Shown here piece by piece: positions 4,457 to 27,540 of a DNA stretch of 30,895 bases. The translations under genes were made by a program, and so were the position numbers. The first letter of the stretch is position 1. The number at the start of each line of letters is the position of its first letter. The DNA comes from an uncultured Clostridia bacterium. GTDB taxonomy: Bacteria > Acidobacteriota > Blastocatellia > UBA7656 > JADIYM01. Location: the NCBI GenBank assembly GCA_964591515.1, contig CAZQBW010000038.1, positions 1 to 30,895 on the forward strand. The letters are read 5' to 3'. Below the pieces are notes generated by a model, which saw nothing but the letters and a program-made list of their open reading frames with translations, did not search any database and was not told the origin of the DNA.

Positions 4457-5707
4457 CTAGACCGCGCCGAGCCCGACGAGTTCCTGGAACCGGGTGTCGC
4501 CGCGCAACGGGAGAAAGTCGGGATCCGTGCGGGCCTTCGAGCGGTGGATTTCGCGCACCGCGACCGCCTGTTCGAGCGTCTTCAGGCCTTCATCCGTATT
4601 GCCAAGCCGCACCTGTGCCGCCGCGAGCGAATACAGGACGTAGGGCATGTCGGGTTGGGACTTGAGCGCGCGCCGGAAGAGGTCGATGGCGGCCTCGAAG
4701 TGCCCGTTGTTCATTTCAATGACGCCCTGATCGTAGAGAGAATCCGGCGTCTGTGAGACCTTTTGCGGAGTCTGGAGCTTCGACTTGCAGATGGCAATAT
4801 AGCGGCTTACGAGCGCGACGATGTCGCTCTGTGTCGGGTACTTGGCGATGATCTTCTCGAATGCGTCCTCCGCGGCAACGAAGTTGGCCTTCTGGAAGAA
4901 CTTCATCGCCGCGTCGAGCGACTTGAGAACGTCGGCCATCTTCGGGGCCTTCGGCTGTTGAACCGGCGGCCGGTAGACAACCGGATCTGCCTTGACGGGC
5001 GGCAGCGGCTTCACGGGCAGGCGCGGAGTTGGCGACTTGGCGGGCTTCGATGGCGCCGCAACAGGGTGCTTCTCAGCCACGACGGCCTTTGCCGAGACCT
5101 TCGGGGCTGCTTTCGGAGCCGCTTTCTGAACTGACCTGGGAGCCGGTTTGGGCGACTTCCCCGAAGCCGTCTTCGCTGGTGACGGCAACGTAGCGGCCGC
5201 GGCTTTTGGAGTCGCGACCGCCGATTTCCCCGACTTCGGAAGAGCTTTGGAGGCCGCCGTCCTGGTCGCCTTCGCAGTCGAACCGGAAGCCTTTGCAGCG
5301 ATTGGCTTTGCAGGCGTCGACCGCTGCGGAGCCGCCTTGGCCTTCCCGCCCGCAACGGCCGCTCCCTTCAATTTCGCCGACGCGGCTGTCTTTGCCACCT
5401 TGGCCGGCGCCGGCACATTCTTCGACGCAACCGGCTTCTTTTCAGCGTCTTGTCGCGACTTGACCGACTTCACATCCGACTTTGCGGACGGTTTGGACGG
5501 TTGCTTCGAAGCTGTAGTCTTCTTTGCCGCTACGACCTTGGACGGCGAGGCCTTCGACACTACCGCTTTCACAGCGGGTTTCACCCTGGACGCGACGCTT
5601 CCCGGCTGCGACGACAGTCGCGACTTGGAAGTGTCCTTGGCAGTTGGCTTTACGGGCGTCTTTCCGGCGGGCTGGCGCTTGCTGGCGTTCGCTGGGGAGT
5701 TCCTCAT
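4457..5707 (-). CDS. Protein with a histone-H1-like Lys/Ala/Pro/Ser-rich disordered N-terminal region (~250 aa) and C-terminal TPR repeats
   Basis: 416-aa ORF. N-terminal AKKA/KPAA/PKAAPK-type low-complexity repeats (…KPAVKAVVSKASPSKVVAAKKTTASKQPSKPSAK…KAAPKAAPKVSAKAVVAEKHPVAAPSKPAKSP…). The last ~165 aa are TPR-like helical repeats (AEDAFEKIIAKYP…EAAIDLFRRALKSQP…LGNTDEGLKTLEQAV). It sits 30 nt upstream of yvcK on the same strand. Confidence 0.7.
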   Translation of the reverse strand: MRNSPANASKRQPAGKTPVKPTAKDTSKSRLSSQPGSVASRVKPAVKAVVSKASPSKVVAAKKTTASKQPSKPSAKSDVKSVKSRQDAEKKPVASKNVPAPAKVAKTAASAKLKGAAVAGGKAKAAPQRSTPAKPIAAKASGSTAKATRTAASKALPKSGKSAVATPKAAAATLPSPAKTASGKSPKPAPRSVQKAAPKAAPKVSAKAVVAEKHPVAAPSKPAKSPTPRLPVKPLPPVKADPVVYRPPVQQPKAPKMADVLKSLDAAMKFFQKANFVAAEDAFEKIIAKYPTQSDIVALVSRYIAICKSKLQTPQKVSQTPDSLYDQGVIEMNNGHFEAAIDLFRRALKSQPDMPYVLYSLAAAQVRLGNTDEGLKTLEQAVAVREIHRSKARTDPDFLPLRGDTRFQELVGLGAV

Positions 5708-5972
5708 CGAGTCCCTCTGTTTGTCGATTCTCTGAGGTGCCAGGCGGAGCCGTCCCAGAGGGGACGGTGCCTAAGTCGAATCAAATCGGTCGTTTATACC
5801 AGTTCGGCACTTGTGATGTCAACATGCGGGGCCGGAAAAGTTGCTAGTTATCAGAACCACTGTTTCACCGCCTCGACGCTGCGCCGGTCGCCATCACGAG
5901 GCGAGGTTGAGGCAGTCGCAAACGGCGGGGTATGATGCCGGCTTCATGCTCCAGACAAATCCACAACCAATC

Positions 5973-8516
5973 ATGATGAACGACAAGTACGAACCGAAGG
6001 CAATCGAGTCGAAGTGGCAGAAACGATGGGCGGCCGACGGAGCCTTCGTGGCTACGCCGGATCCGTCTCGACCGAAGTTCACGGTAGTCGAGATGCTCGC
6101 CTACACGTCGGGACGCCTGCACATGGGTCACGTCGAAAACTACTCGATCGGTGATGCTCTCGCCTGGTACAAGCGGCTCCGCGGATTCAACGTCTTTCAT
6201 CCATTCGGTTGGGACGCGTTCGGCCAACCTGCCGAGGAAGCAGCCATCAAGCACGGCATGGCGCCGGAAACCTTTACTTCGCAGTCAATTGCGAAGATGA
6301 AGGGACAACTCGAGCGGCTCGGCATCGGATACGACTGGACTAGCGAGCTCGCCACCTGCGAGCCGGAGTACTACCGCTGGAACCAGTGGTTCTTCATCGA
6401 GATGTGGAAGCGCGGCCTCATCTACCGGAAGTTCGGTCCGCTCAACTGGTGCCCGAAGGAAGAGATAGTCCTTTCGAACGAACAGGCCGAGAATGGCAAG
6501 TGCTGGCGATGCGGTACCGAGGTCGTCCAGAAGGAGAAGGAGCAGTGGTTCGCACGAATCACCGAGTACGCCGATCAACTGCTTGCCGACATGGATCAGA
6601 TCGAGGACGGCTGGCCCGAGGGCGTGCTGACCTCGCAGCGCGAATGGATCGGCAAGAGCCTAGGCGCCGACGTCACGTTCTCAGTCGAAGGCACTGACGA
6701 CGCGATCACAGTCTTCACGACCCGAATCGACACGATTTTCGGAGTCACCGCGGTCATGCTCGCTCCCGAACATCCGCTCGTCGCGGGGCTCGTCGAGCGG
6801 TCGCCCGACATCGAGAACGTTGCGGCGCTCGTCGAGTCGATGCGCAACGAGAAGCGCTCGGCGCGTGAGATCGATCAGCTCACGAAGCGCGGCGTGGCCA
6901 CCGGGAGCTTCGCCCTCAATCCTTTCACGGGCGAGCGAATTCCCATCTGGATCGCCAACTACGTCCTGATGGAATACGGAACGGGCGCCGTGATGAGCGT
7001 TCCGGGGCACGACGAGCGCGATTTCGAGTTCGCGACGGCCTTCAACCTTCCTGTCCGTCGGGTCATCGTGCCCGTTGACGTCGACCCCGCCTCCCTTCCC
7101 GATACCGTCGACGAAGCTACGGCCGGCGAGGGCGTGTTATGCAACTCAGATGAGTTCAACGGAATGCCGACGGCCGAGGCGCGCGTCGCGCTTGCGGCAC
7201 TCGCCGAGAAGGAAGGATTCGGAACGGCGCGAATCCGGTTCCGATTGCGCGACTGGACGATCACCCGGCAGCGCTACTGGGGAACGCCGGTCCCGATGGT
7301 TCACTGTCCCTCTTGCGGCGTCGTTCCGGTTCCGGAGGACCAACTCCCTGTGGTGCTTCCCCACGGCGTCGCGATCACCGGCGAGCGCGGTTCTCCGCTC
7401 GACCACGTCGAGTCGTATGTCGCCGTCGACTGTCCGTCCTGCGGCGAGCCTGCCCGTCGCGACACCGACACGATGGACACGTTCGTGGATTCGTCCTGGT
7501 ACTTCTTCCGGTACTGCGATCCGCACAATGACTCGAGGCCTTTCGATCCCGAGAAGATCGCCTACTGGTTCCCGATCGATCAGTATGTCGGCGGCAAGGA
7601 GCACGCCAACATGCACCTCATCTATTGCCGGTTCTGGACGAAGTTCATGCGCGACATCGGACTCGTCACGATCGACGAACCGGCGTCGCGGCTGCTCAAC
7701 CAGGGGATGGTCTGCATGTTCTCGGAAGTGACGGGCCGTACCGAGAAGATGTCGAAGAGCATCGGCAACGTAGTCGAGCCCGACGACATGTTCGACCGCT
7801 TCGGCGCCGACGCGACGCGCCTCTACGTGCTTTTTGCCTCGCCGCCAGAGAAGGACATGATCTGGGAGGCCAAGCGTTCGGCGTCCGGTGAACAGGAGTA
7901 CCCCGGCATCGAGGGCGCTTTCCGCTACATCGCGCGAGTCTGGCGGCTCGTTGCACGATGGCACGACGGGATTCTCGGAGCCGGCGAGCCCGGCGCCGAC
8001 CTGACCGAAGCCCAGCGTGCGGTTCGCCGAAAGACTCATCAGACGATCCGCCGCGCCACGGACGCCTTCGAGGACCGATTGCGGCTCAACACCGTCGTCG
8101 CGGCGCTGATGGAGCTGACGAACACACTCTACGATTTCACCGAGGCGACGCCGTCGCCCGGTGCGAACGACCGCGCCGTCGTGGCCGAGGCCATCTCGGC
8201 GCTCTCGCGAATGCTTGCGCCTTTCGCGCCGCACGTGGCCTCGGAGCTGTGGGAGTTGACCGGACACGCCGGGCTGCTCACACAGGCGTCGTGGCCCGAG
8301 TCGAACGAGGACCTCGCGCGCGAAGACTTGATCGAGATTCCGGTCCAGGTGAACGGGAAGCTTCGTTCGAAGGTCTTTGTCGCGCCCGATGCGACGAAGG
8401 AAACCCTCGAGGCCGCGGCTCTTGCGGACGAGCGGGTAGTCGCACTCCTCGACGGCAAGGTCATCGCGAAAGTCATTGTCGTGCCGGGGAGACTCGTGAA
8501 CGTGGTGATCAAATGA
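5973..8516 (+). CDS. leuS: Leucyl-tRNA synthetase
   Basis: MMNDKYEPKAIESKWQKRW…HMGHV (HIGH motif)…KMSKS…, with editing-domain and anticodon-binding regions. The ORF opens at 5841, but homology begins at the ATG at 5973 (MMNDKYEP aligns with the E. coli LeuS N-terminus). An ATG at 5946 is an alternative start. Confidence 0.92.
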   Translation: MMNDKYEPKAIESKWQKRWAADGAFVATPDPSRPKFTVVEMLAYTSGRLHMGHVENYSIGDALAWYKRLRGFNVFHPFGWDAFGQPAEEAAIKHGMAPETFTSQSIAKMKGQLERLGIGYDWTSELATCEPEYYRWNQWFFIEMWKRGLIYRKFGPLNWCPKEEIVLSNEQAENGKCWRCGTEVVQKEKEQWFARITEYADQLLADMDQIEDGWPEGVLTSQREWIGKSLGADVTFSVEGTDDAITVFTTRIDTIFGVTAVMLAPEHPLVAGLVERSPDIENVAALVESMRNEKRSAREIDQLTKRGVATGSFALNPFTGERIPIWIANYVLMEYGTGAVMSVPGHDERDFEFATAFNLPVRRVIVPVDVDPASLPDTVDEATAGEGVLCNSDEFNGMPTAEARVALAALAEKEGFGTARIRFRLRDWTITRQRYWGTPVPMVHCPSCGVVPVPEDQLPVVLPHGVAITGERGSPLDHVESYVAVDCPSCGEPARRDTDTMDTFVDSSWYFFRYCDPHNDSRPFDPEKIAYWFPIDQYVGGKEHANMHLIYCRFWTKFMRDIGLVTIDEPASRLLNQGMVCMFSEVTGRTEKMSKSIGNVVEPDDMFDRFGADATRLYVLFASPPEKDMIWEAKRSASGEQEYPGIEGAFRYIARVWRLVARWHDGILGAGEPGADLTEAQRAVRRKTHQTIRRATDAFEDRLRLNTVVAALMELTNTLYDFTEATPSPGANDRAVVAEAISALSRMLAPFAPHVASELWELTGHAGLLTQASWPESNEDLAREDLIEIPVQVNGKLRSKVFVAPDATKETLEAAALADERVVALLDGKVIAKVIVVPGRLVNVVIK

Positions 8517-9043
8517 AGCGGCGTGACGTCCTCGCTTCGGCCCTCGCGATACCGGCGGCCCTGGCTGCGGGCTGCAAGTACAAGCGCGTCGACACCGGTG
8601 AGTCCATCGGCGGCGACTACAAGACGATTGCGATTCCGACGTTCCTGAACCCGAGCCTGCGTTACCGCGTCGAGCAGCGATTCACCGACGCCGTGACTAA
8701 GGAGCTGCTGCGTCGAAATCGGCACTTCAGGATCGTCACCGACGAAAAGGACGCAGACCTCGTGCTCTCGGGAGAGATCAAGGACGTGCGTTCCGGAGGC
8801 GCGCTGCTCGACGACACCGGGCGCACCCGGGTCTTCCAGGTCGTCATCGTGACCGGCGTCACCCTGCGCGACCAGAAGCGCTCGAAAGTCATTTTCGACA
8901 ACCAGCGGATGGTCTTTCGCGGAGAGTACGAGCTGGCCGGCGACCCGCAGTCCTTCTTCAATGAAGAGGATCCGGCGTTCGATCGCATTGCGCGCGAGTT
9001 CGCCGCGAGCGTCATTTCGACAATCCTGAACGGCGCATTCTAG
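8513..9043 (+). CDS. lptE: LPS-assembly lipoprotein LptE (RlpB-like)
   Basis: Its ATG overlaps the leuS TGA (ATGA). It has a lipoprotein signal with lipobox LAAGC. The position is conserved, immediately after leuS and before holA as in E. coli. Size is ~176 aa. Sequence similarity to LptE is weak but the pattern is compatible. Confidence 0.7.
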   Translation: MKRRDVLASALAIPAALAAGCKYKRVDTGESIGGDYKTIAIPTFLNPSLRYRVEQRFTDAVTKELLRRNRHFRIVTDEKDADLVLSGEIKDVRSGGALLDDTGRTRVFQVVIVTGVTLRDQKRSKVIFDNQRMVFRGEYELAGDPQSFFNEEDPAFDRIAREFAASVISTILNGAF

Positions 9044-9079: not shown

Positions 9080-10093
9080 GTGTCCCGTAGTCGCTCGAAA
9101 TCACAGGGGCTCGCCCCGTCCGATCTCGCCACAGCAGTCTCGGCCGGGCGAATCGATCCGCTGTACCTGTTCCTCGGGCCGGAGCGCTTCCTGAGGCGCG
9201 AATCCGTCGCACTGCTGACGGCAACAGTAGATGAGGCATTTCGGCCGTTCAACGTCGACACGTTCTCGGCGGCCGAGCACGACCTCGAGACGATATTTGA
9301 CGTCGCGAGGCAGCTGCCGATGATGAGCCCGCGCCGCCTGGTGGTCGTCCGCGATGCGGAGTCCATCCGCGAGGGCTCGCAGGATGCGCTCGAAAGCTAT
9401 CTGAAGGATCCCGTCGACTCTGCCATAGTCGTGTTCGTCGCGGATTCGCTCGATCAGCGGCGCAAGTCGTCGACGGCTCTCGCTAAAGCCTGCACAACCG
9501 TGAGTTTTGCGCAGCTCACCGAAGCCGACGCCTCGCGATGGGTCGAGGCGCGCGTAAAGCAGCTAGGCGCCCGGATCGACCGGTCTGCGATCGGCGCCGT
9601 CGTCGATCTCGCGGGCACCGAATTGACCCGGCTCTCGGTCGAGGTCGAGAAGCTCGCGTCGCACGCCGGCTCGGGGACGATCGACGTGCCGAGCGTGCGG
9701 GCGCTCGTCGCTCGCTCGCGCGAACACCAGGTGTGGGATCTGACCGACGCGATTCTCGCTCGCGACCGCGGGCGCGCGATCCGTGTGGTCGTCCGGCAGC
9801 TCGATGCCGGCGAGGAGCCTCTCGGACTGTTGGGGATGCTCGCATCGACCTATCGCAAGATGCTCATCGCCAAGGAGCTCATCCTGCGGAAGGCGCCTGC
9901 CGCCGAAGTACAGGCGGCCGTGAAGCTGCCGCCGTGGAAAATGTCGGAATTCAACACGCAGGTGCGGCGCGTTTCAGCCGAATCGATCGTGCACGGCCTG
10001 CGCCGCATGGACGAGGTCGATGCGGCGATCAAGAGCTCGGTCGGTACACCCAGGCTCCAGCTCGAGATTCTGGTCTGCGAACTGACTTTGTGA
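9080..10093 (+). CDS. holA: DNA polymerase III delta subunit
   Basis: 337 aa. The N-terminus …IDPLYLFLGPERFLRRESVALL…FSAAEHDLETIFDVARQLPMMSPRRLVVVRDAESI is typical of HolA. The leuS-lptE-holA order is conserved. A GTG start is assumed at 9080. Confidence 0.8.
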   Translation: MSRSRSKSQGLAPSDLATAVSAGRIDPLYLFLGPERFLRRESVALLTATVDEAFRPFNVDTFSAAEHDLETIFDVARQLPMMSPRRLVVVRDAESIREGSQDALESYLKDPVDSAIVVFVADSLDQRRKSSTALAKACTTVSFAQLTEADASRWVEARVKQLGARIDRSAIGAVVDLAGTELTRLSVEVEKLASHAGSGTIDVPSVRALVARSREHQVWDLTDAILARDRGRAIRVVVRQLDAGEEPLGLLGMLASTYRKMLIAKELILRKAPAAEVQAAVKLPPWKMSEFNTQVRRVSAESIVHGLRRMDEVDAAIKSSVGTPRLQLEILVCELTL

Positions 10094-10157
10094 TACATCC
10101 TTCGCGCCCGCAGTCTGGTCGCGGCCCAAAGACTCCAAGAGACGAAGAGGTAACGAC

Positions 10158-11003
10158 ATGGCAGTGTTCGCGCACGATGAAAACCCGCTCGACGAGCGGG
10201 AATGGGAGCACCTGAAGGCGGTCGTCATCGACGTTGCGCGACGCCGTCTCGTGGGACGACGCATCATCGACATCCACGGACCGCTCGGGGCGGGCGTTCA
10301 GACGATCGTCCACGACCATTTCACCGGAACGACGATGGGCCAGCTCGGATTGACGGGCGAGGGCGACCCGGATCCGATGCGCTCGGTGCGCCGCGAAGCC
10401 GGCATCATCCCGATCATCTCGAAGGACTTCATCCTTCACTGGCGCGACCTCGAGACATCGAGGCTGACTGGCGTGGCGCTCGACACGGCCATTGCCGCGG
10501 GAGCCGCGGCATTCTGCGCGGATCGCGAGGATCATCTCGTATTCTTCGGTGATTCGGAGATGGGGTACGAGGGGCTGACGACGGTGGAAGGGCGGCTGAC
10601 GCTCGACCTGGGCGACTGGACGGTGCCTGGACAGCCGTTCAGCGACGTGGTTCGGGCCACGGAGTCGCTCGTGCAGGCCGGACATTACGGTCCTTACGCG
10701 CTCGTCGTGACGCCTGAGCTCTACTCGCAGATGCATCGTGTGCACCCGGGCACGAGCGTGCTCGAGATCGCGCACATCCGCGAGATCGTCACGGATGGCG
10801 TTTACCAGTCGTCGATTCTCGGAAAGAACCGCGCGGTGATCGTCTCGACCGGTCGCCAGAACTTCGATCTGGCCGTCGCACAGGATCTCACGGTCGCCTA
10901 CCTTGGCGCCGAGAACATGAACCACCCGTTCCGGGTGTTCGAGTCGGTCTATCTGCGAATCAAACGCCACAGCTCGATCTGCACGCTCGAGCGGCACGCG
11001 TAG
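10158..11003 (+). CDS. Family 1 encapsulin shell protein (Linocin_M18 / HK97 fold)
   Basis: 281 aa. It aligns over the full length with T. maritima encapsulin. [34 protein letters not shown] aligns with [48 protein letters not shown] aligns with [28 protein letters not shown] aligns with FKLILGQDLSIGYE. The RBS GAAGAGG sits 8 nt upstream of the ATG. Confidence 0.85.
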   Translation: [281 protein letters not shown]

Positions 11004-11027
11004 AGCCCTAGGCGACACTGGACGCAC

Positions 11028-11070
11028 GAAAGGCGCGACGCCCACATGGGCATCGCGCCTTTCTTCAATC
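11028..11070 (+). terminator. Hairpin terminator between the convergent encapsulin and rpsT genes
   Basis: gaaaggcgcgacgcccacatgggcatcgcgcctttc has an 11-bp GC-rich stem and is followed by ttcttcaat (T-rich) on the + strand. It could act in both directions. Confidence 0.5.
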
Positions 11071-11085: not shown

Positions 11086-11361
11086 CTACTTGGTAACGGG
11101 TTTGGCCGTGTTCACGCGAGCCGTCAGACGCGACTTGTAACGCGCCGCGGCATTCCGGTGAACGACACCCTTCTGGATCGACTTGTCGATGACGGACATG
11201 ACTGCCGGAAGAAGTTCCTTGGCCCCCGCAACATCGCCGAGCGCCAGTGCCGTGCGCAGCTTCTTGATTTCGGTTCGCATCCGGCTGCCGTTCGCGCGAT
11301 TGACCGCACGACGCTTCTCATTCTGCCGGATTCGCTTGATCGAGGATTTGTGGTTCGCCAT
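11086..11361 (-). CDS. rpsT: 30S ribosomal protein S20
   Basis: MANHKSSIKRIRQNEKRRAVNRANGSRMRTEIKKL…HRNAAARYKSRLTARV is the canonical S20 sequence. Confidence 0.93.
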   Translation of the reverse strand: MANHKSSIKRIRQNEKRRAVNRANGSRMRTEIKKLRTALALGDVAGAKELLPAVMSVIDKSIQKGVVHRNAAARYKSRLTARVNTAKPVTK

Positions 11362-21260: not shown

Positions 21261-24200
21261 ATGAAGTCGACGCGTTGCCCCCAGGGTCGTTGGCGCGTTA
21301 TCGCCGCATTCGGATTGGCTATTGCGGTGACGATTCCCGCGGCCGGCTCGATTGCGCGACCGGTCCTGCCACGAACTGAGCGCCGACCGGACGCCATAGC
21401 GCTCCCGACTGAGCCGAAGGTGAATCCGTCGTTCGGGAGCCTGCCGATCAGCTTCGAGCCGAACGTCGGACAGGCGCCAGACGGGGTCCGGTTCCTGACG
21501 CGCGGATCGGCCGCTGCCTTGACCGCCACAGGAGCCGTGCTCGCGGGAGGCGCGACGCCCGTGTCGCTCGAGTTTGTCGGGGCGTCGGGCTCGGCCCGCG
21601 CCTCCGGCGCTGGCGAGTTGCCGGGAAAGGCCAACTACCTCGTCGGCAACGATCCGTCGAAGTGGAGGACGAACGTCCCGACCTATTCGTCGGTGCGCAT
21701 AGAGCAACTGTACGAAGGTGTCGATCTCGTCTGGTACGGAAAGGGACGGAGCCTCGAATATGACCTCGTCGTCTCGCCGGGCGCCGACCCGGACTCGATC
21801 GCTTTCGAGCTCGAGGGATTCCCCTCACCCGAGCTCGAGGCCGGCGGCGCGCTCGTGGCCGGCAGCGTCCGGCTCGAGCGCCCGTTTGCCTATCAGGAGA
21901 TCGACGGTGCGCGCTGCTCCGTCGCCAGCCGATACGCCGTGCGGGACTCGGGGCGAGTCGCGTTCGAGCTCGGCGACTTCGACCACTCGCTTCCGCTCGT
22001 CGTCGACCCGGAGATCGGCTACAGCTTCAGCCTCGCCGAATCGACGAAGGACATCGCGGTAAGCGGCATCTCGGTCGACCAGACTGGCTCTGCCTACGTT
22101 GTCGGCTCGAGCGCCCCCGCCGGCACGGGAGCCCGGGACGTCTACATCGCGAAGCTCAACCCCGAAGGAACGGCGCTCGTCTATTCGACGACGATCGGCG
22201 GAACGCGATACGACCTCGCGTACGACGTCGCCGTCGACGATGCGGGCAGTGCCTTCGTCACGGGCGAGACCCTTTCCAGCGACTTTCCCACGACGGCGGG
22301 AGCGTTTCAGCCGGCCTTCGCGAGCTCCAGCCCGGGCGATGCCGACGCTTTCGTCCTCAGGCTTGCGCCTGACGGCGCAACTCTCGTCTATGCCTCGTAT
22401 CTCGGGGGCGCAAAGTTCGACCACGGGAAGGACATCGTGATCGACGCGCCGGGCAATGCCTACGTCATCGGCACCACCACGTCGACCAACTTCCCGACCA
22501 CGGAGCCGGAGCAGGCAGGCAACGGCGGACTGGCCGACGCATTCATGACGATCGTCAATCCGACGGGAAGCGCGAAGGTCGCGTCGACCTACCTCGGCGG
22601 CTCCGAAAGCGACAACGGCGAGGGGATCGCGATCGACCCGGACGGAAACGTCTACGTCGTTGGAGCGACCTCCTCGACGAACTTCCCGGTGTCACCGGGT
22701 GCGCTGCAATCGACATTCGGCGGCGGCGTCATCGACGGCTTCTGGGCGAAATACGACCCGTCGGGCCAGCGCGTCGCATCGACCTATCTCGGCGGCTCTG
22801 GCGTCGACGTCGCCCGTGCGCTCGTCGTCGATGCCGCCGGGAATTCGTACCTGACCGGTGAGACGGACGTCACCGACTTTCCTGGAGTATCTCCGGTTGG
22901 CGGGAAGGTCACCGGCGGAAGCCGGGACGCCTTCGTCGTGCAGCTGAACGTGAACGGAACCGAAATCGAGTTCTCGATCTCCTTCGGCGGCAGTCAGTAC
23001 GAATCGGGGAATGCCATCGACTTCAACAGCGGCGGGCTGCTCTACATCGCGGGCGACACCTATTCGAGCGACGTTACTATGTTCGATCCCATTCAGGTGA
23101 CGTTCGGCGGAGGCATCTCGGACGCGTTTCTGCTGCAGTGCGACCCGAACGCGCCGGGTCCCGAATCCATCCAGTTCTGTACGTACATCGGCGATGAGCG
23201 AACGAACTTCGGTGTCGACTGCGGGGTCGGTCCGAACGACGAAGTGTGCGTGGCCAGCACGTCGCCGGACCTGAGCCCTGACGGATCGGAGAATGACGAG
23301 GGCGGGGTCGTCGAGTTCACCTTCGATCCGGCCGGACCGAAGCCCGACCTCAAGGTCAGCCTTGCAGTCTTTGACTACACGCCCAGAGAGGGTCGGCCGA
23401 GCGCCATCGTTCATGTGATCGTTCGGAGTACGAACGAATGTGCAGGACCGAAGGCTCCGAACGCCACGTTCTCCGTCGAGATACCGTTTGGGCTCGAGTT
23501 CGTCGGAGCAGCGGGAGGCGCGGCCGGCATTCGAGTGGTTTCGACGCCGCCCGTCGGCCAGCCGGGAGTGGTGACGTTCGCGATAGACCGAGCGGTCGAA
23601 CTTGACGGGACGGACCGCGGCACGGTCGGAGTGTCGCTTCCGGCCTCGGTTCCGTCGGCCGGCCCGTTCCAGCTCGAAGCATCGGCGTCGATCTCGGACG
23701 CGCTGGAATGCAACTATCGAAACAACACGGTCACTGGCGTCCTCGACATCGGCAAGCGCGTCTTTCAGCAAGGGGCCAGGCTGCTCGAGTTCAACGTGCT
23801 CGGGGACCCGACGGCCCCGCCAACAATTCAGATCGTGAACAACGCGACATCGCCTGGGGCGCTGCCGTCATCCCGACTCGCGGGCGGAACGCGCCGGTTC
23901 AACGTGTATGCCTCGACGCAGGCCGGTGTGCAGCCTGTGCCCTCGAATTTTTTCGTCTCGGTACCCGGCAGCCAGTCGTCCGTCGACGTGTCGACTGCTC
24001 CCGCCGGATCGTTTTTTGTTGTGACCACGGCGACTGACGACAGCGAGAGCGCGCCGTCGAACGAGGTCGGGGGCGTCCTGCCTACGGTCACCAAGCTGAG
24101 GGTGTCGGCGACGAAACTCGTTGCGCAGGGAACCGGCTTTGCTCCCGGCCTCCGGGTCCTGTTCGGCGGGCTGTCCTTCACGTCGGCCGCGTCTCTGAAG

Positions 24201-24353
24201 AAGAACAACACGAAAGTCATCCAGAAGGGCCCGCTGGTTTCGGGCCAGTCGATCGGCAGCTTCGCCGACCAGTACCTTAGCCCAGGCGCGAAGGTCGTAA
24301 TTCTCTTCGTCAATGCGAACGGAAGTGCGGTCGCGGTCGAATACACTCGGTAA
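21261..24353 (+). CDS. Secreted large SBBP-type beta-propeller repeat protein (paralog 1). It has an N-terminal conserved domain with the motif SLPISFEPNVGQAP and C-terminal CARDB-like and TIG-like domains.
   Basis: Signal peptide MKSTRCPQGRWRVIAAFGLAIAVTIPAAGSIA. Repeated units of the type YSTYLGGSxxDxGxxIAVDxxGNAYVxGxTxSxNFPTT are SBBP-like. PDLKVSLAVFDY…ATFSV is CARDB-like. The last ~95 aa are shared with paralog 2. An SD (AGGAG) precedes the start. Confidence 0.8.
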   Translation: MKSTRCPQGRWRVIAAFGLAIAVTIPAAGSIARPVLPRTERRPDAIALPTEPKVNPSFGSLPISFEPNVGQAPDGVRFLTRGSAAALTATGAVLAGGATPVSLEFVGASGSARASGAGELPGKANYLVGNDPSKWRTNVPTYSSVRIEQLYEGVDLVWYGKGRSLEYDLVVSPGADPDSIAFELEGFPSPELEAGGALVAGSVRLERPFAYQEIDGARCSVASRYAVRDSGRVAFELGDFDHSLPLVVDPEIGYSFSLAESTKDIAVSGISVDQTGSAYVVGSSAPAGTGARDVYIAKLNPEGTALVYSTTIGGTRYDLAYDVAVDDAGSAFVTGETLSSDFPTTAGAFQPAFASSSPGDADAFVLRLAPDGATLVYASYLGGAKFDHGKDIVIDAPGNAYVIGTTTSTNFPTTEPEQAGNGGLADAFMTIVNPTGSAKVASTYLGGSESDNGEGIAIDPDGNVYVVGATSSTNFPVSPGALQSTFGGGVIDGFWAKYDPSGQRVASTYLGGSGVDVARALVVDAAGNSYLTGETDVTDFPGVSPVGGKVTGGSRDAFVVQLNVNGTEIEFSISFGGSQYESGNAIDFNSGGLLYIAGDTYSSDVTMFDPIQVTFGGGISDAFLLQCDPNAPGPESIQFCTYIGDERTNFGVDCGVGPNDEVCVASTSPDLSPDGSENDEGGVVEFTFDPAGPKPDLKVSLAVFDYTPREGRPSAIVHVIVRSTNECAGPKAPNATFSVEIPFGLEFVGAAGGAAGIRVVSTPPVGQPGVVTFAIDRAVELDGTDRGTVGVSLPASVPSAGPFQLEASASISDALECNYRNNTVTGVLDIGKRVFQQGARLLEFNVLGDPTAPPTIQIVNNATSPGALPSSRLAGGTRRFNVYASTQAGVQPVPSNFFVSVPGSQSSVDVSTAPAGSFFVVTTATDDSESAPSNEVGGVLPTVTKLRVSATKLVAQGTGFAPGLRVLFGGLSFTSAASLKKNNTKVIQKGPLVSGQSIGSFADQYLSPGAKVVILFVNANGSAVAVEYTR

Positions 24354-24378
24354 ACCAGCTCCTCAAGGAGGCGGATCC

Positions 24379-27300
24379 ATGCGACTTCACCGCATCGCCA
24401 TTGCGCAACGCTCGGCCACGGTCCGGTCCGGTGTCCTGATGCTCCTGGCGTCGCTGGCGTGTTCGTCGGCCGCTCCCGCATCGACGACCCTCGAAGAGCC
24501 GATCTCCGCCGCCGTGCCCGCGGTTGCTGCTCCGGCAGCAGCTCGCGTCTCGCCCTCGTTTGGCAGTCTACCGGTCAGCTTCGAGCCGAACGTCGGGCAG
24601 GCGCCGGCAAATGAGAAGTACATCGTTGCAGGTGCTGATGCAGCTGCGGTGACCGCAACGGGCGTCGTGCTCCGAGGCGGTTCCAAGCCCGTGACGCTCG
24701 AGTTCATTGGGGCGTCGACGTCGGCCAGCATGACTGGGACGAATGAGCTTGCCGGAAAGGCCAACTACCTCGTCGGCGACGATCCGTCGGCTTGGAAGAC
24801 GAACGTGCCGACGTATGCGTCGGTCCGCGTCGAGCAGCTCTACCCGGGCGTCGACCTGGCTTGGTACGGAAAGGGTCGGAGCCTCGAGTTCGACCTCGTG
24901 CTGGAGGCTGGCGCCGATCCGGGCAATGTCTCGTTCAAGCTCGACGGCGTTCCCGCGCCCATTCCCGAGATCGGTCCGGACGGCGCGCTCGTCGCTGGCG
25001 ACGTACGGTTCGAGCGGCCGGTCGCCTATCAGGAGGTCGACGAGGTGCGCAAAGCGGTTCCGTGCGGATATGTCACCAACGGCGATGGACGCGTCGGCTT
25101 CCGGCTCGGCGAATACGACCACTTGCTCCCGCTCGTCATCGATCCGGAGATCGGCTACACCTACACGTTCGCGGATTCGAGCAAGGACATCTCGATATTC
25201 GGCATTGCCGTCGATTCGACCGGAGCGGCGTACGTCGCCGGACGGACGCGAACCGAGGGCTCCGGCGGAGTGCTCACTGTGGCCGCCTTCGTCGCCAAGC
25301 TGAATCCGGAGGGCACGGCGCTCGTCTACTCGACGACGATTTCCGGGTCGGCGGGCAACGAGGAGGCGCGCGACATCGCGGTCGACGCCACGGGCAACGC
25401 CTTCATTACGGGCTTCGTGTTCTCGAGCAATTTCCCGACGACCGCCGGAGCGTTTCAGACGACGAAGGGATCGCCGAACGGAACCCAGGATGCGTTCGTC
25501 GCGAAGCTCGCGCCGGGGGGCGACTCGTTCGTCTACTCGTCGTTCCTCGGAGGCAGCGGAGGTACGTCCGGAAGCAGGATCGCGATCGACGCCAGCGGCA
25601 ATGCCTTCGTGGCCGGCTTTACACAGTCGAGCAACTTCCCGACGACGTCACCAGCACAGGGGACGTTCGGCGGGGTCCGCGACGCATTCCTGACGAAGGT
25701 CAACGCCGCGGGCAGCGCGAAGACCTATTCGACCTATCTCGGCGGAAGTCAGAGTGACACCGGCAACGACGTCGCGGTCGATGCGTCGGGCAGTGCCTAC
25801 GTCGTCGGCGTGACGACGTCTACGAACTTCCCTGTCTCGGCGGGCACGATCCAGGGAACAAGCGGCGGCGGTTCGGACGGTTTCTGGGCGAAGTACGATC
25901 CGGCCGGACAGCGGGTGGCGTCGACGTATCTTGGCGGCACGGGATTCGACAGCGCGAACGGCGTCGCGGTAGATGCGGCTGGAAACAGCTATCTCACCGG
26001 CGAGACGGCATCGCCCGAATTTCCGCTCGTGGCGCCGGTACAGTCGACGATCGCCGGGGATCGCGACGCCTTCATCACCTCGCTGAACGGGTCCGGGACG
26101 GCGACGACTTTCTCTACGTTCTACGGTGGCACCCGGTACGACTACGGAACCGCAATTGCCCTGGGTGGCACGGGCTCAATCGACGTCGTCGGCACGACCG
26201 AATCGAACGATTTCCCTGCAGTTGACCCAGTCCAATCCACGTTCGGCGGTGGAGTCTCGGATGCGTTTGTCATCCGATTGGGCTTCGGTACGACCGCCGG
26301 GCGACTCGAGCTTCCATTGCCGACGGTGACATCTTCCTCGTATCAAGGCGGCCCCGGTCGCGAGACGGGCGCAGCCGTCGGGCCGAACGGTGCGAATGGG
26401 GTCGCCGTCGCAACGAGTCAGCAAAAGGACAGCCCTCAAGGCGGACACGACGAAGCCGGTGTCACGACATACACTTACGTCGGACCGCCCGCTCCCGACC
26501 TCGCCGTGACAGGTGCGCTTGCGGGAACCTACACCTCCAATGGTGAGCGGTACTACCTGATCTTCGTGCTCGCTACCAGCACAACGCGTTGCTCCGCGGA
26601 CCTGCTCGCACCGAATGCCACGTTCGGCGTCGTCCTTCCGGCGGGAGTCCGCTTCAAGGGCGTCTTTGCGTCAAACCGCGACGTCACGGTAACGGACCGG
26701 CCTGATGTGGACCACGCAGGTGCAGTGACGTTCACGTACTCGAAAGCGGTGCCCATTCTGAGGCCAAACCAGGAGTTCGCCGCGTTTCCATCGTCGGCAT
26801 ACGTCCTCGTGACGGTGGAGGACCCACAGGTCACTTCCCTCCCCGTGAACTTCTTCGCGTCGGTCAGCGGAAGTCTCGAGTGTTACTACGACAACAACGA
26901 GCAGACCAAGGTCCTGGACCTTCTAAGCAAGGGACTTCGACTCGGCTTCGGTTCGAAAACACTCCAGGTGTTTGGCTATTCTCCCGAAGGCTCCGGTAAG
27001 CCCGTTACACGAATGATCGGTGACGCCGTTCCCGACCTGAATCCACCTCACCGGTCGGAGTTGGTACCTGGGCTCGTCGGATTCAATGTCTACATGTCAG
27101 TGAGCCCCGGCGTTCAACCGGTCGAAGCGAATCGGATTGGCTTCATTCCGGCGGACCAGGTGTTCTTCGACGCCTCGGATACGCCCAGCGGGGCGTTCTT
27201 CATTCTTACGGCGGTCTCCGCGGACGGAGAGTCCGAAGCATCGAACGAGGTCGGAGGAGCGTTGCCTTCGGTATCGTCGCTGAAAGTCAGCGGGACGAAA

Positions 27301-27540
27301 CTTGTGGCGAAGGGAGCGGGCTTCGCGACGGACGTTCGCGTTTACTTTGCGGACAATGCCTTTGAGCAGGCACCGAAGTTGAAGGCGGGAAATTCGAAGC
27401 TCACCCAGAAAGGACTGCTCGAGAGAGGCACGACCATTGGCGAGTTCACGTCATCGCTGCTGATTCGGGGATCGAAGGTACTGGTCCTGTTCGTCAATGG
27501 CAACGGAAACGCCGTGGCGACTGAGTACATGGTGCCGTAG
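24379..27540 (+). CDS. Secreted large SBBP-type beta-propeller repeat protein (paralog 2), a tandem duplicate of the upstream gene
   Basis: A perfect SD (AAGGAGG) precedes the ATG at 24379. Signal peptide MRLHRIAIAQRSATVRSGVLMLLASLACSSAAP. It is ~60-65% identical to paralog 1 over the N-terminal domain (SLPVSFEPNVGQAP…KANYLVGDDPSAWKTNVPTY…) and the SBBP repeats. It has the same C-terminal domain. Confidence 0.8.
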   Translation: MRLHRIAIAQRSATVRSGVLMLLASLACSSAAPASTTLEEPISAAVPAVAAPAAARVSPSFGSLPVSFEPNVGQAPANEKYIVAGADAAAVTATGVVLRGGSKPVTLEFIGASTSASMTGTNELAGKANYLVGDDPSAWKTNVPTYASVRVEQLYPGVDLAWYGKGRSLEFDLVLEAGADPGNVSFKLDGVPAPIPEIGPDGALVAGDVRFERPVAYQEVDEVRKAVPCGYVTNGDGRVGFRLGEYDHLLPLVIDPEIGYTYTFADSSKDISIFGIAVDSTGAAYVAGRTRTEGSGGVLTVAAFVAKLNPEGTALVYSTTISGSAGNEEARDIAVDATGNAFITGFVFSSNFPTTAGAFQTTKGSPNGTQDAFVAKLAPGGDSFVYSSFLGGSGGTSGSRIAIDASGNAFVAGFTQSSNFPTTSPAQGTFGGVRDAFLTKVNAAGSAKTYSTYLGGSQSDTGNDVAVDASGSAYVVGVTTSTNFPVSAGTIQGTSGGGSDGFWAKYDPAGQRVASTYLGGTGFDSANGVAVDAAGNSYLTGETASPEFPLVAPVQSTIAGDRDAFITSLNGSGTATTFSTFYGGTRYDYGTAIALGGTGSIDVVGTTESNDFPAVDPVQSTFGGGVSDAFVIRLGFGTTAGRLELPLPTVTSSSYQGGPGRETGAAVGPNGANGVAVATSQQKDSPQGGHDEAGVTTYTYVGPPAPDLAVTGALAGTYTSNGERYYLIFVLATSTTRCSADLLAPNATFGVVLPAGVRFKGVFASNRDVTVTDRPDVDHAGAVTFTYSKAVPILRPNQEFAAFPSSAYVLVTVEDPQVTSLPVNFFASVSGSLECYYDNNEQTKVLDLLSKGLRLGFGSKTLQVFGYSPEGSGKPVTRMIGDAVPDLNPPHRSELVPGLVGFNVYMSVSPGVQPVEANRIGFIPADQVFFDASDTPSGAFFILTAVSADGESEASNEVGGALPSVSSLKVSGTKLVAKGAGFATDVRVYFADNAFEQAPKLKAGNSKLTQKGLLERGTTIGEFTSSLLIRGSKVLVLFVNGNGNAVATEYMVP

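Follow-up and report, generated by a model that had tools for sequence, protein, structure and literature searches.

A family 1 encapsulin shell gene held at the end of the leuS-lptE-holA block of uncultured Blastocatellia, with no cargo gene beside it

The function of an encapsulin is usually read from the cargo gene adjacent to its shell gene, and the locus described here raises the question of what a shell takes up when no such gene stands beside it. The locus lies on contig CAZQBW010000038.1 (assembly GCA_964591515.1), a stretch of 30,895 nucleotides analysed over its whole length (the window), which is deposited as an uncultured Clostridia bacterium and placed by GTDB in the Blastocatellia. 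Its shell gene, enc1, follows leuS, lptE and holA on the same strand (Table 1), and a whole clade keeps the shell at this housekeeping site without a cargo gene next to it. A preliminary description of the window had called the gene cargo-less and offered three readings, namely a distal cargo, a non-canonical targeting signal, or an empty shell, each of which it regarded as unusual.

A family 1 shell gene at a fixed position

The only domain match of the enc1 product is to Pfam PF04454 Linocin_M18 (residues 1–264, E 1e-64), and residues 6–277 score 261.7 bits against the equivalog model NF041155 encap_f1 (family 1 encapsulin nanocompartment shell protein), whose curated cut-off is 100 bits, so that the profile search proposed in the preliminary description bears out its identification of an encapsulin. 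Among the 37 encapsulin sequences of the PDB that match enc1, the best is EncA of Myxococcus xanthus (4pt2, E 2.9e-101), which aligns without a gap over 275 residues (4–278 of enc1 with 5–279 of EncA), followed by the T=4 shell of Quasibacillus thermotolerans (6nj8, E 1e-81). The maritimacin of T. maritima is much more distant (residues 9–253, E about 8e-10), and the end-to-end alignment claimed earlier for both shells thus holds for M. xanthus but not for T. maritima. With a full-length match to the curated model, an HK97-fold shell as homologue, and neither the family 2 features (extended N-arm, cNMP domain) nor a fusion domain, enc1 is, as judged from its sequence, a clear member of the family 1 encapsulins. 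Its shells are probably T=3, about 32 nm and of the EncA type, an assignment made only from the gapless alignment to EncA.

Contigs encoding a protein identical to enc1 number at least 22, and the six longest of them (from different samples, in JGI, ENA and Logan assemblies) share the same gene order around the shell gene, while near-identical cluster members are annotated as metagenome-assembled genomes (MAGs) of Blastocatellia bacterium (including MBK6313153.1). A scan with an alignment of close homologues (A1), restricted to one genome per GTDB species, yielded 30 Blastocatellia loci (L013–L042) and 50 outgroup loci from Bacillota, Armatimonadota, Melainabacteria and others, and synteny was assessed by tblastn with the proteins of the window. 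The gene holA lies directly 5' of the shell gene in all 30 Blastocatellia representatives, a convergent rpsT lies 3' of it in 29, and lptE precedes holA in nearly all. Five more loci (L007, L008, L010, L093 and L094; shells 59–84% identical to that of the window) have the same arrangement with different outer flanks, which brings the conserved order of holA and enc1 to 35 of 35 distinct loci; rpsT is found near the end of the shell gene in 32 of these, mostly at a distance of 81–170 nt and at up to about 2 kb in one. The spacer between holA and enc1 measures 13–151 nt in the relatives and leaves no room for an extra gene. Mis-assembly was rejected, as the order is repeated on six independent contigs and in 30 species representatives.

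Two further observations concern the members of this clade. Most of their shell proteins carry a Lys/Arg-rich tail of 10–15 residues after a conserved ...ICTLEP (for example ...TKTTRRRK or ...SKKRGK; L010, L016–L042, L093 and L094), while those of the window, L007 and L013–L015 lack it and end at ...ICTLERHA. Several MAGs titled uncultured Clostridia bacterium (L013, L021, L031 and L034; binchicken/SRP co-assemblies) contain the Blastocatellia leuS-lptE-holA-enc-rpsT block with a shell gene 70–100% identical to that of the window, and these organism names look like default mislabels.

The shell gene is under very strong purifying selection and is more constrained than any other gene of the block. 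When the codons of the window were compared with those of two related species (L013 and L014), the nonsynonymous rate (dN) of the shell gene was 0.0016 and the synonymous rate (dS) 0.67–0.80 (dN/dS 0.002), as against dN 0.058–0.063, dS 0.87–0.92 and dN/dS 0.064–0.072 for leuS, 0.058–0.059, 0.96–1.07 and 0.055–0.061 for holA, and 0.023–0.030, 0.64–0.66 and 0.035–0.045 for rpsT. Since the dS of the shell gene is similar to that of its neighbours, the identity at the protein level is not explained by recent gene transfer. Compared with L015, dN/dS was 0.017 for the shell gene and 0.045–0.13 for its neighbours, and across the clade the tblastn identity to the window is 65–72% for the shell, 41–48% for HolA, 49–60% for LptE, 52–57% for LeuS and 61–69% for ribosomal protein S20.

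The cargo that family 1 systems hold in the same operon, marked by a targeting peptide (TP, here the C-terminal, GSL-type peptide searched for with regular expressions), is lacking at the enc1 locus. A six-frame scan of the entire 31-kb window returned five matches, every one in a non-coding frame, in agreement with the earlier statement that no protein of the window ends in such a peptide. No credible TP-bearing open reading frame (ORF) was found with the C-terminal expression in the 35 Blastocatellia neighbourhoods (about 20 kb each, about 10 kb either way), and a relaxed motif, a motif scan of whole ORFs and a local search of all ORFs with an EncFtn hidden Markov model were negative in the same neighbourhoods. 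As a positive control, an adjacent ORF ending in (L/F)TVGSL(K/R/I) was recovered in about 43 of the 50 outgroup loci. No conserved ORF of unrecognised kind accompanies enc1 across species either (comparisons of L001–L008, L010, L093 and L094). A DyP_N protein with its neighbour (L008) and a rubrerythrin (L010) were rejected as cargo, as neither case shows a TP or conservation.

In all of the nearest outgroups checked, a ferritin-like cargo gene adjoins the shell gene. Three of these cargos were translated and end in ...PLTVGSLRRSR (Archangium), ...SFTVGSLKGRPDGS (L095) and ...GLTVGSLRGVPQLPSK (L096, with shell P0060), and at a further locus (shell P0061) a 120-residue ORF, the putative cargo, occupies the same position directly 3' of the shell gene. 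Because every nearest outgroup checked has an adjacent cargo and no Blastocatellia locus does, the missing local cargo gene is a derived, stable trait of the clade and not a deletion in one genome. The comparison of synteny among relatives suggested in the preliminary description therefore speaks against both local deletion and mis-assembly, and the possibility raised there that homologues always carry an adjacent cargo is contradicted by 35 Blastocatellia loci. The term cargo-less is accurate for the locus in all 35 cases; it need not hold for the genome, since a TP-bearing cargo is encoded on another contig in two relatives, as described below.

The targeting-peptide pocket and a candidate cargo

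The closest solved relative of enc1, M. xanthus EncA (family 1, T=3), encapsulates the cargos EncB, EncC and EncD, and Myxococcaceae homologues are 54–57% identical to the shell of the window. By cryo-electron microscopy, the TP of EncC makes polar contacts with R28, R34, D38, D213 and D243 of EncA (PMC10402063), and a study of EncD, which binds EncA via LTVGSLR, describes the same aspartates together with Tyr217, in a numbering shifted by one (PMC11126975). As the alignment is gapless, these contact residues map directly onto the protein of the window, where all five polar residues are present and identical to those of EncA. In the order given, they are retained by 35, 35, 34, 33 and 35 of the 35 enc1 sequences, the exceptions being replacements of Asp by Glu, while 35% of all columns are invariant. 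Judged by these residues, enc1 is a shell that keeps the EncA-type TP pocket, a site on the luminal face formed by the N-helix and the P-domain. Its likeness to EncA at all five polar contacts predicts an LTVGSLR-like ligand.

A protein with such a peptide was found in two relatives. A broad EncFtn profile search (alignment A3) retrieved P0314, an annotated Blastocatellia protein of 116 residues ending in ...PLTVGSLRRSEQG, whose gene lies on JAKEHD010000310.1 (GCA_022615215.1) directly 3' of a second family 1 shell gene, enc2, and the same assembly contains the holA-enc1 block on contig JAKEHD010000707.1 (L036). In another assembly, P0475 (ending in ...FTVGSLRATDR) is encoded with enc2 on CAZTUB010000006.1, while the holA-enc1 block lies on CAZTUB010000026.1 (L021). 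The two enc2 products score 184–185 bits against NF041155, and the cargo of their operon reaches 78 bits against the EncB family model, under its cut-off of 90. The candidate cargo is EncB-family-like, and it ends in LTVGSLRR, the motif of M. xanthus EncB, EncC and EncD, or in FTVGSLR. A divergent regulator of SufR-like/ArsR type (its match likewise under the cut-off) belongs to the operon, which is flanked by Mrp/ApbC, NifU and an Fe-S biosynthesis protein on one side and by ParB and ParA on the other. The enc2 shells carry Asn28, Ala213 and Phe216 and have an adjacent cargo of their own. The pocket residues are therefore not required for folding, and their constancy in enc1 speaks for the binding of a peptide by that shell.

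The two shells are 40–45% identical to each other. When the two genomes are compared, the identity is 86% for enc1, 69% for enc2 and 49% for the cargo (P0314 and P0475). The locus of P0060 (L096, 65% GC) and that of P0061 are syntenic with the Blastocatellia enc2 locus (Mrp, NifU, helix-turn-helix (HTH) regulator, shell, EncFtn, ParB, ParA), and the Mrp proteins of the P0060 and enc2 loci are 64–68% identical. With enc1 of the window, the shells P0060 and P0061 share 60% identity, and P0060 is nearer to it than to enc2 (41–44%). They have a cargo gene immediately 3' and a dedicated regulator, and enc1 has neither. The shell gene plausibly came from a locus of this type, and one reading of the identities is a duplication, after which enc1 would have kept the ancestral sequence and moved behind holA.

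Operons of the enc2/P0060 type are always divergent from the SufR-like/ArsR-type HTH regulator and adjoin genes for Fe-S assembly, namely Mrp/ApbC, NifU, a HesB-like protein and a 2Fe-2S thioredoxin-like protein; the regions concerned are 8248–8976 of L098 with its flanks, 114–2330 of L096 and 115–1090 of L105, all on the minus strand. These neighbours and the SufR-like regulator suggest a link of the enc2-type ferritin-like encapsulin to Fe-S cluster homeostasis. An ORF of 97–98 codons follows the EncFtn gene in the enc2 operon (L098, 10371–10664; L099, 10357–10653; L100, 4016–4312); it is conserved, has no Pfam or NCBIfam match and no TP, and may be an accessory component of the operon.

Further searches gave no link between the lineage of the window and a cargo or second system. 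A metagenome scan with enc2 returned four loci only, none from samples holding the organism of the window, and the samples containing P0061 differ from those of the window, so that co-occurrence gives no link to its lineage. All the matches listed (at least 120) in a search for Blastocatellia cargo with the Archangium EncB homologue were from Myxococcota, and a profile search of 1.84 billion representatives with cluster look-ups covered sequences with almost no taxon names.

Locus layout and expression signals

The features of the enc1 locus are collected in Table 1. The layout given in the preliminary description, with holA 64 nt upstream on the same strand and rpsT convergent downstream, is confirmed by the Pfam assignments, and the ribosome-binding site and the hairpin that it attributed to the shell gene are borne out by the sequence and the RNA fold.

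Table 1. Features of the enc1 locus, in positions of the window
Feature	Position	Strand	Description
leuS	5841..8516	+	Leucyl-tRNA synthetase, first gene of the co-oriented block; Pfam tRNA-synt_1_2, tRNA-synt_1, Anticodon_1
lptE	8513..9043	+	Lipopolysaccharide-assembly lipoprotein, 176 aa; Pfam PF04390 LptE, E 4e-12; 4-nt overlap with the leuS stop
holA	9080..10093	+	DNA polymerase III delta subunit, 337 aa; Pfam DNA_pol3_delta, DNA_pol3_delta_C
holA-enc1 spacer	10094..10157	+	64 nt; Shine-Dalgarno-like AAGAGG at 10145-10150, 7 nt 5' of the ATG
enc1	10158..11003	+	Family 1 (EncA-like) encapsulin shell, ATG start, 281 aa; no fusion domain, no adjoining cargo gene
GC-rich hairpin	11028..11063		Between enc1 and rpsT; stem of 15 pairs (11 + 4), RNA fold
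rpsT	11086..11361	-	Ribosomal protein S20; Pfam Ribosomal_S20p, E 1.4e-30; convergent on enc1
Promoter	11432-11404	-	Near-consensus, sigma-70 type, upstream of rpsT; TTGACA, 17 nt, TATAGT; 11/12 matches

Scans of the spacer between holA and enc1 in the window found no promoter-like and no terminator-like site, and its secondary structure is not significant (fold z 0.30). The promoter of rpsT is the sole strong promoter match in the 6.3 kb scanned. The hairpin behind enc1 (-34.8 kcal/mol, z -5.05, with an equally good fold in 0 of 200 shuffles) is probably a bidirectional terminator for the convergent enc1 and rpsT; its U-tract is weak (TTTCTTC, plus strand), and it was missed by the consensus terminator scan. 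Read-through transcription of enc1 is inferred from the short spacers (13–151 nt) of the clade, the lack of terminator or promoter signals in the spacer of the window, and a strong ribosome-binding site, and the gene layout would be in keeping with the constitutive expression together with the housekeeping operon that had been proposed earlier.

Many Blastocatellia genomes contain, in their intergenic regions, long hairpins with tandem 7-nt repeats in both arms, such as (ATTTTGG)n ... (CCAAAAT)n, the heptamer being species-specific (AATGATG, TTTGTCA, GAGTTTT, CAGTTTT, GTGATGA). Such a hairpin often fills the holA-enc1 spacer up to a GGAGG ribosome-binding site, but the window has none. Examples are located at 9900–9985, 4927–5007, 5103–5174 and 16343–16426 of L016, at 3950–4037 of L026, at 1398–1510, 10248–10331 and 11636–11772 of L038, and at 9894–9973 of L022 (and others). 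They resemble the cyanobacterial STRR repeats. No shared regulatory motif was detected in the holA-enc1 spacers; these species-specific hairpins alone stood out, and they recur at other sites of the same genomes.

By Pfam, the rest of the window consists of housekeeping genes, with glmS, glmU, a CofD-family gene and a TPR protein on the minus strand, and further with a putA-like proline dehydrogenase, a CBS-domain protein, an anti-sigma factor, kdsB, pyrG, pyrK, pyrD, a winged-helix/TPR regulator and two large DUF7948/SBBP proteins. The latter two are encoded by tandem, overlapping genes at 21261–24353 and 24313–27540 (plus strand), whose products of about 1,030–1,075 residues combine DUF7948 with SBBP beta-propeller repeats and are probably secreted or surface paralogues. 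Rfam gave zero matches in the window. The gene callers differ in two places. The leuS ORF runs from 5841, while the callers start it at 5973 (847 residues) on identical contigs (L001–L006). Just 5' of leuS, the calls at 4457–5770 (minus strand) and 5148–5735 (plus strand) conflict, some contigs being annotated with a minus-strand TPR protein of 416 residues and others with a shorter TPR protein (160–207 residues) and a 195-residue plus-strand ORF without Pfam match; GC content by codon position supports the long minus-strand gene.

Competing readings and their meaning

The reading considered fairly likely is that enc1 encodes a functional EncA-type shell which is expressed with the housekeeping block and loaded in trans with a canonical TP cargo. 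The gene would have been fixed as the last of the leuS-lptE-holA block in the ancestor of the uncultured Blastocatellia clade and kept since without a neighbouring cargo; it would be transcribed by read-through from the block, its product would self-assemble into a shell, and this shell would take up proteins with a C-terminal (L/F)TVGSLR-type TP whose genes lie at other sites of the genome. A single candidate for such a cargo has emerged, the EncB-family ferritin-like ferroxidase of the enc2 operon, present in at least two related genomes, and because this candidate is a ferritin-like EncFtn next to Fe-S assembly genes, a role in iron sequestration or protection from oxidative stress is predicted.

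Several points weigh against this reading. In many relatives, the long hairpin of the holA-enc1 spacer might end the transcript or lead to its processing. For the high-GC subclade of the window (the window, L007 and L013–L015), the metagenome and sample scans revealed neither a cargo gene nor an enc2 gene. The pairing of enc1 with enc2 rests on the binning of MAGs, in two genomes only, and the local GC of the paired contigs differs somewhat (0.53 against 0.50, and 0.58 against 0.52). The EncFtn cargo adjoins enc2, which is its obvious partner, and would have to enter enc1 as well. Family 1 systems are described as cargo-shell operons with translational coupling (PMC7925596), so that a shell supplied in trans from a differently regulated locus would not necessarily be loaded efficiently.

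A shell that works without cargo, for instance as a sink for minerals or small molecules, a nucleic-acid-binding particle or a structural body made constitutively, would fit the housekeeping context and the lack of a cargo gene within about 10 kb in 35 lineages, and the Lys/Arg-rich tail of most enc1 proteins (not that of the window) could bind polyanions; condensation of DNA by the M. xanthus encapsulin is reportedly the subject of one paper. This reading is nevertheless held to be unlikely, since enc1 keeps the five polar TP-holding residues virtually unchanged and enc2 can do without them, a pattern that is hard to explain without peptide binding, and since a canonical TP cargo is present in two of these genomes. 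The same EncA-like pocket makes it rather less likely still that the partner of enc1 lacks a GSL-type C-terminal peptide and enters by an N-terminal or internal signal or as a new class of cargo. The lack of a canonical TP nearby would be compatible with this, as would the N-terminal TPs on the ferredoxins of IMEF systems and the family 1 systems without assignable cargo (PMC8346489), but the motif scan of whole ORFs, at any position, also gave nothing credible, and no conserved unknown ORF travels with enc1 across species.

Co-assembly of enc1 and enc2 into a two-component compartment, in which the cargo of the enc2 operon would serve both, is regarded as very improbable. Both genes occur in two MAGs and both products are bona fide family 1 proteins, but these are just 40–45% identical, they have evolved at very unlike rates between the same two genomes, and their loci are organised differently; to our knowledge, no two-component family 1 shell has been described. 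A non-functional relic, whether a prophage HK97 capsid remnant or a gene decaying after the loss of its cargo, may be regarded as refuted. The weak matches of enc1 to phage capsid families (PF09950, 24 bits; PF19774) stay below the Pfam cut-offs and reflect the common HK97 fold, against an equivalog-level encapsulin score, an ORF intact in 35 lineages and a dN/dS of 0.002–0.017, which excludes a relic or a dispensable gene. The prophage origin that the preliminary description had named as an example of what would refute its identification is not borne out, as the encap_f1 score (262 bits) is accompanied by housekeeping neighbours only, with no portal, protease, terminase or other phage morphogenesis gene nearby.

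Loading in trans thus remains the favoured explanation, and of the three earlier readings it is the distal cargo that is preferred, given the TP-bearing cargo of two relatives and the intact pocket. The genes of EncC and EncD are unlinked to encA in M. xanthus. A survey of family 1 found 90 of 2,383 systems, within diverse genome neighborhoods, to be without an assignable cargo type (Andreas & Giessen 2021, PMC8346489). On these two grounds, a shell without an adjacent cargo is not a new category, and the earlier verdict that each reading would be unusual does not hold for a distal cargo. The enc1 locus resembles those 90 systems in being a family 1 shell with no recognisable cargo type nearby, but they form a heterogeneous remainder without a described common context, whereas enc1 belongs to a coherent clade with a fixed housekeeping position.

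It differs also from the systems nearest to it in sequence. In the Myxococcota (L012 and L095), an EncB cargo always adjoins the shell, which has its own operon, while enc1 has no such neighbour and is embedded behind leuS-lptE-holA; unlike in M. xanthus, the adjacent cargo is held in at least two Blastocatellia relatives by a second, divergent shell. The IMEF encapsulins of Q. thermotolerans (family 1, T=4) are the next-closest solved shells, and the IMEF-type outgroup loci (Bacillota; 47–53% identity) share the (L/F)TVGSL peptide, on a cargo encoded directly upstream of the shell in nearly all of them, where enc1 has none. The accessible parts of the text and supplements of PMC8346489 hold no entry for Acidobacteria or Blastocatellia, encapsulins in Blastocatellia were not mentioned in the literature searched, and unlinked or orphan shells are not addressed in the DFLP preprint or in a 2025 review. 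The combination of a clade-wide fixed position at the end of the block, a constraint above that of essential neighbours, an intact pocket and a second, cargo-keeping shell in at least two genomes appears to be undescribed.

A bolder proposal, possible but doubtful, is that enc1 is a housekeeping shell permanently uncoupled from cargo operons, produced constitutively with leuS-lptE-holA and serving as a common receptacle for one unlinked TP protein or several. Where two shells are present, a constitutive and conserved enc1 might then divide the labour with a SufR-regulated and fast-evolving enc2, competing for or sharing the ferritin-like cargo, or else the cargo of enc1 might belong to a class as yet undescribed.

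The hosts of enc1 are abundant in soil and activated sludge and are uncultured. If their shell is loaded in trans, the assignment of cargo from operons would overlook genuine systems, and trans-loading may be frequent among the roughly 4% of family 1 systems that have no assigned cargo. The genomes with enc1 and enc2 would then provide a naturally occurring pair of shells drawing on a single pool of cargo, in which the specificity of loading could be studied.

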